Counted from the first letter of the stretch, positions 31,458 to 33,945 are shown. The stretch: DNA of 64,000 nt from Escherichia coli (GCF_003991155.1 NZ_CP031293.1); one strand, 5' to 3'. Notes: generated from the sequence alone by a model not told the origin. Translations and numbers: made by a program.

Positions 31458-31943
<486 letters not shown>

Positions 31944-32057: not shown

Positions 32058-32190
32058 ATGAATACTAACGTTTTTCGACTGCTCCTGCTGGGAAGCCTGT
32101 TCAGCCTTAGCGCCTGTGTGCAGCAAAGCGAAGTGCGGCAGATGAAACACAGCGTCAGCACACTGAACCAGGAGATGACGCAACTCATTG
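32058..32190 (+). pseudogene. yajI: yajI 5' fragment (lipoprotein signal and first ~44 codons), interrupted by an IS insertion
   Basis: MNTNVFRLLLLGSLFSLSACVQQSEVRQMKHSVSTLNQEMTQL..., then the frame runs into IS sequence and stops at 32246; the rest of a YajI-sized protein resumes about 1.76 kb downstream. Confidence 0.7.
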
Positions 32191-32230
32191 ACATCCTCCA
32201 CGCCCTGAAGGACGTGGATCCCTGCTACGT

Positions 32231-33439
32231 TCAGGCTGTCGCCTGAATCATTTCGGTGGGTTCCTGCTTCAACGGGCGGCCTGACTGCACCATCCCTCCA
32301 CAGGCAAGAACGGCGTGCCCCGCCGCTAAAATGTTACGAGCGCCATTTACATCGGCGTTCGCTGTATATCCACATACCTGGCATCTGAATTGACTTTGTG
32401 ACAGGCGATTTTCTTTCGCTGTATGACCACAGCACGTGCAACGCTGGCTTGTGTACGCTGGCGGAACAGCAAGCACCTGACCGCCACGCCAGAGCTGCTT
32501 GTACTCAAGCTGGCGGCGCATTTCATACCAGCCCTGATCCAGTACCGAACGGTTTAAACCTGATTTTGCCCGGACATTGCGTCCCGGCTGGCTGACCGTA
32601 CCCGCTGCTGACTTTGACATGTTGCTGACCTTCAAATCCTCAATGACTATCATTGCGTGGTTTTTGCTGACGGTCGTTGTGACTTTGTGAAGGTAGTCCC
32701 TGCGGATATTTGCGATACGGGAATGCAGTCGCTGTATTTTGCGTTTCTGCTTCTGCCAGTTATTGCTGAATTCGACCTTGCGGCTTAACTGTCGCTGAAG
32801 TCTCGCCAGCGTCTTCTGGTTTTTCTGAAAACTGTTTACAGGCTCAAAGACTGTGCCATCTGACAGCGTGGCGAGTTTAGCCACGCCAGCATCCAGCCCG
32901 ACCATTGATGCTGAAGGGTGAACCGGAGTGGATACTTCACTTTCTGTCTGAATACTGATGTACCACTTACCGCAGGACTGGCTGACAGTGACATTTTTCA
33001 CAACACCCGTGACCTGACGGCTGTTCCGGTAGCGCATCCAGCCCAGTTTCGGCAGAAAAATACGGCTGTTTTCCTGATCGAGCTTAACGCCCTGCGGGTA
33101 GCGGAATGCATCATTCTGTCCCCGCTTTTTGAATCGGGGAAAAGCAGCCCGCTTCTGGAAGAAGTTTTTGTAAGCCCGCTCAAGGTCTTTCAGTGACTGT
33201 TGCAATGGCTGTGAGGGCGAATCTTTAAGCCATTGCGTTCCAGTGGCGTTTTTCCACTCAACCAGCCAGGAAGCCATTTTCCCGTAAGGGATGTATTTAT
33301 TACCGGCCTCATGATTCTCATTCTGAAGCGCCAGAGCACGATTGAAAACGAAACGACATGCGCCTGCGAAGCGCCTCATTTCATGCTCCTGTTGACCACC
33401 GGGTCTTAACTGGAATTTAAATGCCTGTAGTCGTTTCAC
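32231..33439 (-). CDS. tnpB: TnpB (IS605 OrfB; RuvC-like RNA-guided endonuclease), apparently intact
   Basis: 402 aa; RuvC-like motifs [24 protein letters not shown] and [13 protein letters not shown], and a C-terminal zinc finger CTCCGH...CQVCGY. Confidence 0.85.
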
Positions 33440-33454
33440 AGGTCAAATTATATT

Positions 33455-33938
33455 TTGGTCTGTGAAAAAAGAAACCGATATCCGGCGTGGAAGGCATTGT
33501 GTTTTCCTGATGCATGTTCACCTGGTCTTTGTCCCAAATACCGACGCCAGATTTTTGACCATGACGCGACAGAAAAACTACGCACTTACTTTTCAAATGT
33601 ATGTGCTGATTTTGAAGCTGAACGGGTTGAAATGGATGGCGAACCAGATCACGTCCATTTGTTAATTAACTATCCTCCCAAACTGGCGATATCCAGTCTG
33701 GTAAACAGCCTCAAAGGTGTATCGGGTAGGTGACTGCGACGAGATCGACCAGATATTGCAGTCAGGTATTACTACAAAGGCGTTTTGTGGAGTCCTGGCT
33801 ATTTTGCCAGTAGCTGCGGAGGTGCGCCAATATCCGTCATCCGCCAATACATTGAACAACAGCAAACACCTGGTCAGGTGGAAAACCGCGCCTTATATCC
33901 CCGCCCTGAAGGACGGGGTTTTACGGCGCACCGGATAA
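33455..33938 (+). pseudogene. tnpA: tnpA (IS200-type HuH transposase) remnant with frameshift and in-frame stop
   Basis: Three pieces: HVHLVFV (frame from 33462), then PKYRRQIF...DHVHLLINYPPKLAISSLVNSLKGVSGR ending at TGA 33729, then LRRDRPDIAVRYYYKGVLWSPGYFASSCGGAPISVIRQYIEQQ after the stop. The conserved Tyr region (RQYIEQ) lies beyond the stop. Confidence 0.7.
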
Positions 33939-33945
33939 AGAAACC

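Follow-up and report, generated by a model that had tools for sequence, protein, structure and literature searches.

A predicted TnpB guide RNA at the right end of an IS609-group element in yajI of Escherichia coli

The interrupted yajI locus

A stretch of 64,000 nucleotides (nt) from Escherichia coli (GCF_003991155.1, NZ_CP031293.1), in the following called the window, carries the E. coli ribD-nrdR-yajI-tsx region. The gene yajI is split by a 1747-bp insertion sequence (IS) of the IS200/IS605 family (32188-33934). The empty site and the identity to the K-12 copy define it as a complete IS609-group element of the K-12 insQ type. The top (working) strand of the element is the minus strand of the window. 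On this strand, the order is left end, a hairpin (33899-33918), the divergent tnpA, tnpB (33439 to 32231), a second hairpin (32218 to 32197) and the right end. The segment from 32188 to about 32335 (minus strand) most probably encodes the scaffold of an omega RNA (right-element RNA, reRNA), which overlaps the last ~35-50 codons of tnpB and carries a guide aimed at uninterrupted yajI. A first-pass annotation had proposed an omega RNA across the tnpB 3′ end and the element end. At the level of sequence, this proposal is supported by covariation, synonymous constraint and the position of the boundary.

Uninterrupted yajI of E. coli 042 reads ...CAACTCA/ATAAAGAAAC..., corresponding to window position 32187 fused straight to 33935, which makes the insertion exact and free of target duplication; the empty site CTCA/ATAAAG represents both junctions with zero duplicated bases. 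The 042 empty site and 40 related ends confirm the tnpB-proximal element end at 32188, where it had been placed before. With the slash marking the element boundary, the minus strand reads 5′-TTTAT/CCGGTGCGCC... at the left end and finishes ...GGAGGATGTCAA/TGAGTTGCGTCATCTCC at the right end. The right-end tetranucleotide TCAA (32188-32191, minus strand) is the TnpA cleavage site and would form the final bases of the scaffold. Within the window, a single occurrence of the 30-nt right-end terminus was found, where chance predicts zero.

The left-end hairpin, CCCCGUCC-UUCA-GGGCGGGG (33899-33918, minus strand), was read from the sequence and is kept in the left ends of relatives. Its sequence is almost equal to that of the right-end hairpin, with the same loop and orientation. 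An imperfect subterminal hairpin at each end, both on one strand, the lack of terminal inverted repeats, an insertion 3′ of a short conserved motif without target-site duplication, and a Y1 HUH transposase gene, recognized by Pfam Y1_Tnp and inactivated here, place the element in the IS200/IS605 family.

The transposase gene tnpA (33447-33871, plus strand), divergent from tnpB, is a pseudogene, in which Y1_Tnp is found in two fragments. Two of its lesions, an in-frame TGA and the loss of the natural stop, are common to the K-12 copy at ydcO, whereas a 1-nt deletion at 33533 is private. The RefSeq annotation records a frameshift and an internal stop. Intact relatives encode 138-143 amino acids. 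The copy in E. coli O157:H7 has an intact tnpA (L062, 663-1094), named 'IS609 family transposase' by NCBI, and intact IS609 tnpA is also present on plasmids of other Enterobacterales; a supply in trans is thus possible. Because lesions are common to the K-12 copy, the parent element was seemingly tnpA-dead already. The yajI insertion seems to be derived from such an element, implying mobilisation in trans.

The terminal 153 nt of the element are present in 4876 of 5426 complete E. coli genomes, nearly always beneath an annotated InsQ/TnpB gene. Another chromosomal copy in E. coli, located at yfaY-yfaV (L063), has an intact tnpB with a stop overlapping the annotated yfaV start. A left-end pattern search of this copy gave no match.

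TnpB and its relatives

The gene tnpB (32231-33439, minus strand) is intact and encodes an RNA-guided endonuclease of 402 amino acids, as assigned by Pfam and by alignment to 8EXA. The stop codon occupies 32233-32231, in agreement with the stop noted earlier at 32231. The protein contains the Pfam domains HTH_OrfB_IS605, OrfB_IS605 and Cas12f1-like_TNB. It aligns to the TnpB of ISDra2 (8EXA/8H1J) with an E value of 1e-53, and the RuvC residues D/E/D and both CxxC pairs are conserved. Compared with 8EXA, the catalytic motifs are GLDAG, IEDLK and NADVN, and the zinc finger reads CTCCG...CQVCG. The first-pass annotation had made its case dependent on unsubstituted catalytic residues, and the alignment revealed no substitution in the triad or the zinc finger. 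RefSeq already labels the gene 'RNA-guided endonuclease'.

An intact TnpB open reading frame (ORF) was present in all five E. coli copies examined. Among them, the ratio of nonsynonymous to synonymous substitution rates (dN/dS) was 0.17-0.44 and significantly below neutral in nine of ten pairs, including pairs in which both copies have the dead tnpA. Across all comparisons made, it ranged from 0.06 to 0.44. Judged by these ratios, purifying selection acts on TnpB among the E. coli copies despite the dead tnpA in cis. A scan of one genome per species identified 57 related loci, mostly in Enterobacterales, with 60-94% amino-acid identity. The window TnpB shares 85% identity with the 'IS609' TnpB of PMC12781874, where this ortholog was purified with a designed guide and TTAT was taken as the transposon-associated motif (TAM).

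Within tnpB, the second-strongest patch of synonymous constraint (0.82-0.86) comprises codons 248-262 (32654-32698), ~470-510 nt upstream of the right end. A plus-strand promoter-like match (32625-32653), which is within chance expectation, abuts this patch.

Conservation and structure of the putative scaffold

Forty related element ends from ~30 Enterobacterales species and strains stop at the position corresponding to 32188. Thirty-seven of them end exactly in GGAGGATGTCAA, and three relics show near-variants. The flanks beyond this terminus are unrelated in every insertion compared. The abrupt stop of conservation at the transposon boundary, followed by a locus-specific flank, fits a fixed scaffold to which a guide of local origin is joined. 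The conserved part covers ~32188-32305 (minus strand), with one more conserved patch at 32329-32334. The first-pass annotation had located the RNA at 32188-32420, which was right as to place and generous in its upper bound. As in omega RNAs, the structured block lies on the sense strand of tnpB and overlaps both the 3′ end of this gene and the right end of the element.

Synonymous constraint starts at about -118 from the right end. The 14 most constrained 10-codon windows of tnpB all start at codons 378-391 and have codon identities of 0.88-0.94, compared with a mean of 0.59 over codons 1-350. High codon identity at the tnpB 3′ end coexists with a lower amino-acid identity there. The proportion of synonymous differences (pS) is 0.32-0.58 in the last 52 codons versus 0.66-0.78 upstream.

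For the structure test, the last 200 nt of 31 sequences were aligned, and a structure was derived from RNAalifold and the Rfam alignment of RAGATH-18. Slid partners and 500 shuffles served as controls for five measures. In the alignment, 96.9% of cells were paired, compared with 40-47% with slid partners. Compensatory changes occurred in 9 pairs and 38 cells, against 1-4 pairs and 1-7 cells after sliding. None of the 500 shuffles matched the observed value in four of the five measures. The secondary structure expected of an omega RNA is thus backed by covariation. The compensatory changes fall into three helices of the last ~120-150 nt, two overlapping the tnpB coding sequence and the third being the right-end hairpin. 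Many G-U pairs render the scaffold structure strand-specific.

The right-end subterminal hairpin (32197-32218, minus strand), visible as an inverted repeat, consists of a stem of 9 bp closed by a UUCA loop (-22 to -19). Its arms, 32197-32206 and 32209-32218, are 90% complementary and form UCCACGUCC-UUCA-GGGCGUGGA on the minus strand, in accordance with the hairpin reported for 32197-32218 previously. Four of the nine pairs show compensatory changes, and the loop position (-22 to -19) reads UUCA or UUUA. By analogy, this hairpin would correspond to stem 4 of the ISDra2 omega RNA; it is also the expected recognition hairpin of TnpA on single-stranded DNA.

An irregular long hairpin (32221-32256, minus strand) spans the tnpB stop codon and resembles stem 3, with a core of TTCAGGC/GCCTGAA at 32230-32247. 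Its covariation (32227-32251) includes the alignment pair 152:176, AU in 16 and GC in 14 sequences, and the pair 161:168, which is GU, AU or GC. Further inward, a RAGATH-18-like module of two helices (32263-32304, minus strand), CCUGU...GCAGG around GGGAUGG...CCGCCC, was recognized by Rfam and covariation in the tnpB coding sequence. The inner helix (32274-32296) has three pairs with compensatory changes, one of them GC in 20 and AU in 10 sequences. At position 32295, the window retains a G-C pair, whereas the K-12 IS609 copy has A-C.

A candidate long-range, pseudoknot-like pairing was proposed by the RNAalifold consensus. Its 5′ arm, ACAUUU (32329-32334, minus strand; -147 to -142), may pair with GGAUGU at 32191-32196 (-9 to -4). 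The invariant patch AUUUUAGCG, at about -145 to -137 from the right end, is separate from the main constrained block. Next to the candidate arm, codons 371-372 (TTA GCG, 32324-32329) are invariant at synonymous sites.

Several structural candidates were discarded. A hairpin at 32311-32325 (GCGGC...GCCG) reached 95% pairing with several breaks and one compensatory cell, and was not relied on. An RNAalifold pairing, 76-80/96-100, was replaced by the RAGATH-like outer helix; covariation was present in neither. Folding of the single sequence gave only a mild advantage over shuffles (z -2.2 and -2.6), which was not used as evidence. Given identities of ~83% or more between the window and its relatives, a hit with a custom covariance model would be trivial.

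Two relics, in Photorhabdus tasmaniensis (L058, 2478-2677) and in a gammaproteobacterial metagenome-assembled genome (L060, 2449-2648), retain nothing of the element but its last ~150 nt. They are about scaffold-sized, with near-variant termini and unrelated sequence upstream. In a group from Photorhabdus and K. pneumoniae (L025-L030, L039, L040, L055), the members share 84-88% DNA identity with one another in the region that matches window 32440-32259. The intact TnpBs of L025-L030 are just 61-63% identical to the window protein. Beyond the matched region, this group has a different 3′ module and a longer right-end hairpin, followed by the same GGAGGATGTCAA terminus. The sequence pattern looks like a modular exchange or strong constraint at the RNA level.

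Guide, TAM and target allele

Read-through of the right end would attach a predicted 16-nt guide, 5′-UGAGUUGCGUCAUCUC (32172-32187, minus strand), which is antisense to yajI and located directly 3′ of the conserved terminus. The guide could extend to about 32168. The same position holds unrelated sequence in all other insertions. The yajI flank had been named as guide source before; the flank string was correct and the start was off by one, the predicted guide beginning one base earlier, as TGAGTTGCGTCATCTC (32187 to 32172). A transcript end near 32175-32190 had also been suggested; a mature end near 32172-32168 is predicted instead.

The motif TTTAT abuts the left end (33935-33939, minus strand) and is the TnpA target motif and the predicted TAM of TnpB. 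It precedes the left end in four of four complete E. coli insertions, namely those in yajI, ydcO, a TetR/AcrR gene of O157:H7 and an IncI1 plasmid; the right flanks of these insertions all differ. Relatives have TTTAY or TTAY as left flanks, and TTTAT or TTAY was found in more than 20 independent insertions overall.

In uninterrupted yajI of E. coli 042, TTTAT stands immediately 5′ of the guide match (TTTAT+TGAGTTGCGTCATCTC...). As in known omega RNA systems, the TAM equals the transposase target motif and lies 5′ of the guide match in the empty allele. The earlier expectation of a guide against the uninterrupted yajI allele is borne out to this extent. An exact 35-mer in uninterrupted yajI, consisting of TTTAT and a guide match of at least 24 nt, was found in 1864 of 5426 complete E. 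coli genomes. Strains vary at the insertion site: K-12 has TTGAT and would lack the predicted TAM. A search of the window for guide matches found the occupied locus as the only full match, preceded by TCAA and not by a TAM.

A weak terminator-like hairpin (32150-32165, minus strand), CAGTGTGCTGACGCTG followed by TGTTTCATCT, starts 23 nt past the right end, near the point at which a guide would finish. With loose criteria, the scan for such sites yielded 8 sites versus 2.2 expected. The truncated yajI ORF (32059-32246, plus strand) encodes a signal peptide and a lipobox and enters the right end by 59 nt, gaining 19 IS-encoded codons. Transcripts from the yajI promoter would converge on tnpB and be antisense to both the predicted guide and the scaffold. 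Downstream of the right end, at a distance of ~280 nt and on the tnpB strand, follow nrdR (31458-31907, minus strand) and ribD; transcription running on from tnpB and the guide RNA could reach the nrdR operon.

Comparison with RNA families and related elements

Rfam was searched at E<=1 over 2.5 kb. HgcC (32175-32298, 23.8 bits against a gathering score of 50), RAGATH-18 (32261-32304, 28.1 bits against 44.9) and sot0042 (32197-32358, 17 bits against 88) were the sole matches, all on the tnpB strand. For sot0042, only the terminal hairpin aligned well. Of eight relatives scanned, four gave an HgcC match at the corresponding position, with 26.8-34.8 bits. A covariance-model search, suggested as a check in the first-pass annotation, thus recovered three TnpB-associated RNA families, each below threshold. 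Filing the RNA under HgcC, RAGATH-18 or sot0042 was rejected because of the sub-threshold scores; the matches support homology to these families, not formal membership.

HgcC (RF00062) and sot0042 (RF02656) are archaeal RNAs that, with respect to tnpB, lie on the same strand and at the same place as the predicted RNA. Their terminal hairpin and GGAGGAxGUCAx tail are nearly identical to those of the window, whereas upstream parts align poorly to these families, which were built from archaeal sequences. According to PMC4615843, sot RNAs overlap tnpB 3′ ends and HgcC has their right-end-like tetraloop. The same study reports a transcript overlapping the tnpB 3′ end in RNA sequencing of E. coli K-12 (PMC4615843). 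RAGATH-18 (RF03064) is the core of the guide RNA of IS607 TnpB (PMC11061315). The segment CCUGUGGAG...CGUUGAAGCAGGAA matches both ends of the RAGATH-18 model, with a variable inner helix between them. RAGATH-18 belongs to IS607 serine-recombinase elements and lies outside coding sequence (PMC11061315), whereas the window element is of the Y1 type and has the motif inside tnpB; the window module shows neither the 44.9 bits nor the IS607 association nor the non-coding position of that family.

The closest known element is the K-12 copy of IS609 (insP/insQ beside ydcO). It is the same element, with 97.9% identity over 1747 bp, and shares the ends, the TTTAT left flank and the divergent tnpA/tnpB layout. 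The window copy differs in its insertion site in yajI, hence in its guide, and in one extra tnpA frameshift. A literature search on insQ, ydcM or IS609 in combination with small RNAs found no dedicated study; ydcM was encountered only as a marker in quantitative PCR.

H. pylori IS608 reportedly targets TTAC without duplication and has a TCAA right end and subterminal hairpins on one strand. The window element is similar in inserting 3′ of TTAY without duplication, in its TCAA right end and in its one-strand hairpins. IS608 differs in its co-oriented tnpA and tnpB and in a TnpB that was inactive in interference assays (PMC10055086).

ISDra2 of Deinococcus radiodurans (8EXA, 8H1J) has a homologous TnpB (E 1e-53) with identical catalytic motifs. 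Both elements place the RNA across the 3′ end of tnpB and the right end, take the guide from flanking DNA and use the transposase target as TAM; for the window these are predictions from the DNA. A terminal hairpin with a UUYA tetraloop is found ~20 nt from the guide, UUUA being at -20 to -17 in ISDra2 (PMC10097598). The core scaffold has ~116-120 nt, as constraint in the window starts from -118 and the ISDra2 scaffold has 116 nt (PMC10097598). In contrast, the TAM is TTGAT in ISDra2 and TTTAT/TTAY in the window element, tnpA is co-oriented in ISDra2 and divergent here, and the pseudoknot partner lies at -104 compared with a candidate at about -145. The RAGATH-18-like inner module of the window element also distinguishes it from ISDra2.

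Proposed mechanism

In the family model developed for ISDra2, read-through transcription joins a scaffold and a guide (PMC8612924, PMC10097598). Targeting of the donor joint by TnpB has been described for the ISGst elements of Geobacillus (PMC10055086). Onto the anatomy, boundaries, conservation, covariation, catalytic motifs, TAM consensus and target allele observed at yajI, a pathway can be laid that takes transcription, processing, assembly of the ribonucleoprotein, cleavage and homing by recombination from these relatives. Transcription in the direction of tnpB would cross the boundary at 32188 into antisense yajI. The precursor is probably the tnpB mRNA, because no internal promoter-like site was found. 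An independent omega RNA promoter was dropped as a candidate; the promoter scan found no minus-strand site inside tnpB, and the one plus-strand match is within chance. Read-through would append the locus-specific guide 5′-UGAGUUGCGUCAUCUC to the scaffold. TnpB would bind the scaffold and cleave DNA in which 5′-TTTAT is followed by a guide match. The predicted target is TTTAT+TGAGTTGCGTCATCTCCTGG, the scarless yajI 'donor joint', which is identical with the uninterrupted yajI allele. The occupied locus would be spared, since GTCAA and not TTTAT precedes the match. After the TnpB cut, recombination would restore the element (homing).

Alternative explanations

A number of observations speak against an active guide RNA at this locus. 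The TnpB of H. pylori IS608 was inactive in interference assays (PMC10055086), and intact motifs are therefore no guarantee of activity. With tnpA dead in cis, this copy is non-autonomous and excision needs a transposase in trans. The guide is thus useful only together with such a transposase or against an incoming uninterrupted allele. In mutation-accumulation lines derived from MG1655, zero transpositions of IS609 were recorded (PMC5009759). Taken with the dead tnpA, this means that the donor joint targeted by the guide may rarely or never arise. TnpA, too, depends on the right-end hairpin, in single-stranded DNA, and covariation there is therefore not RNA-specific. The candidate pseudoknot, paired in 98.9% of cells, showed no covariation in the 31 sequences, both sides being nearly invariant. 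The three Rfam matches are below the gathering scores, the minus-strand promoter scan within tnpB found no sigma-70-like site, and convergent yajI transcription into the right end could antagonise the RNA.

The most serious competitor, which is nonetheless unlikely, is a functional relic, that is a genuine omega RNA gene by descent which is inert in this lineage for want of excision and of a target. The tnpA lesions common to the yajI and K-12 copies and the zero transpositions of IS609 in the mutation-accumulation lines agree with it. The yajI junction, found in 340 of 5426 complete E. coli genomes, is 100% identical among the strains listed, suggesting a recent clonal insertion. An inert gene is at odds with the TnpB ORF being intact in all five E. 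coli copies at a dN/dS of 0.17-0.44. The scaffold is similarly preserved: K-12 and window copies differ at only 2 positions in the last ~150 nt, compared with 37 positions overall. The intact IS609 tnpA genes of O157:H7 and of Enterobacterales plasmids, which allow a supply in trans, argue in the same direction.

Far less probable is a conserved end that serves transposition only, as a single-stranded DNA signal for TnpA, or acts as terminator or stabiliser of the tnpB mRNA, with no guide RNA being made. The hairpins of the two ends are almost the same, as TnpA recognition would lead one to expect, the right-end hairpin holds much of the covariation, and no independent promoter was found. Constraint and compensatory changes, however, reach 120-150 nt inward and involve two further helices overlapping tnpB. 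Ends of the IS608 type are said to need only the region of the hairpin and cleavage site, and the constrained stretch extends well beyond this need. The inner region is also what matches RAGATH-18 and HgcC, and the relics in P. tasmaniensis and the gammaproteobacterial genome keep ~150 nt and not the hairpin alone.

A domesticated regulator, in which TnpB and its RNA were co-opted for RNA-guided DNA binding or repression instead of cleavage in the manner of TldR, would fit the purifying selection that keeps TnpB in most E. coli genomes next to a dead tnpA, but is barely credible given that the RuvC triad and zinc finger are intact, unlike in TldR, which PMC10705468 presents as nuclease-dead, that the guide is whatever flanks each insertion, and that the window contains no second guide match with a TAM, the only other match carrying three mismatches.

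Implications

An omega RNA with a guide against uninterrupted yajI remains the preferred explanation. The pair of TnpB and RNA might, though this is improbable, act without transposition in cis as a stand-alone device of allele drive or exclusion. The idea is based on a module of tnpB and guide that is under purifying selection beside a long-dead tnpA and occurs in ~90% of complete E. coli genomes. If it were true, the yajI copy would cut an incoming uninterrupted TTTAT-yajI allele, which is carried by one third of strains. Conversion to the insertion allele would be forced, or recombinants would be blocked.

As a case of a known system in a catalogued IS, the module is routine. The understanding of how TnpB systems work is unchanged. 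The finding is mainly a point of annotation: in about 4900 of 5426 complete E. coli genomes, a guide RNA module lies unannotated, and current Rfam models miss it. In addition, the locus offers a concrete case for native TnpB activity, and for the protection of an element with a dead transposase, in the best-studied bacterium.

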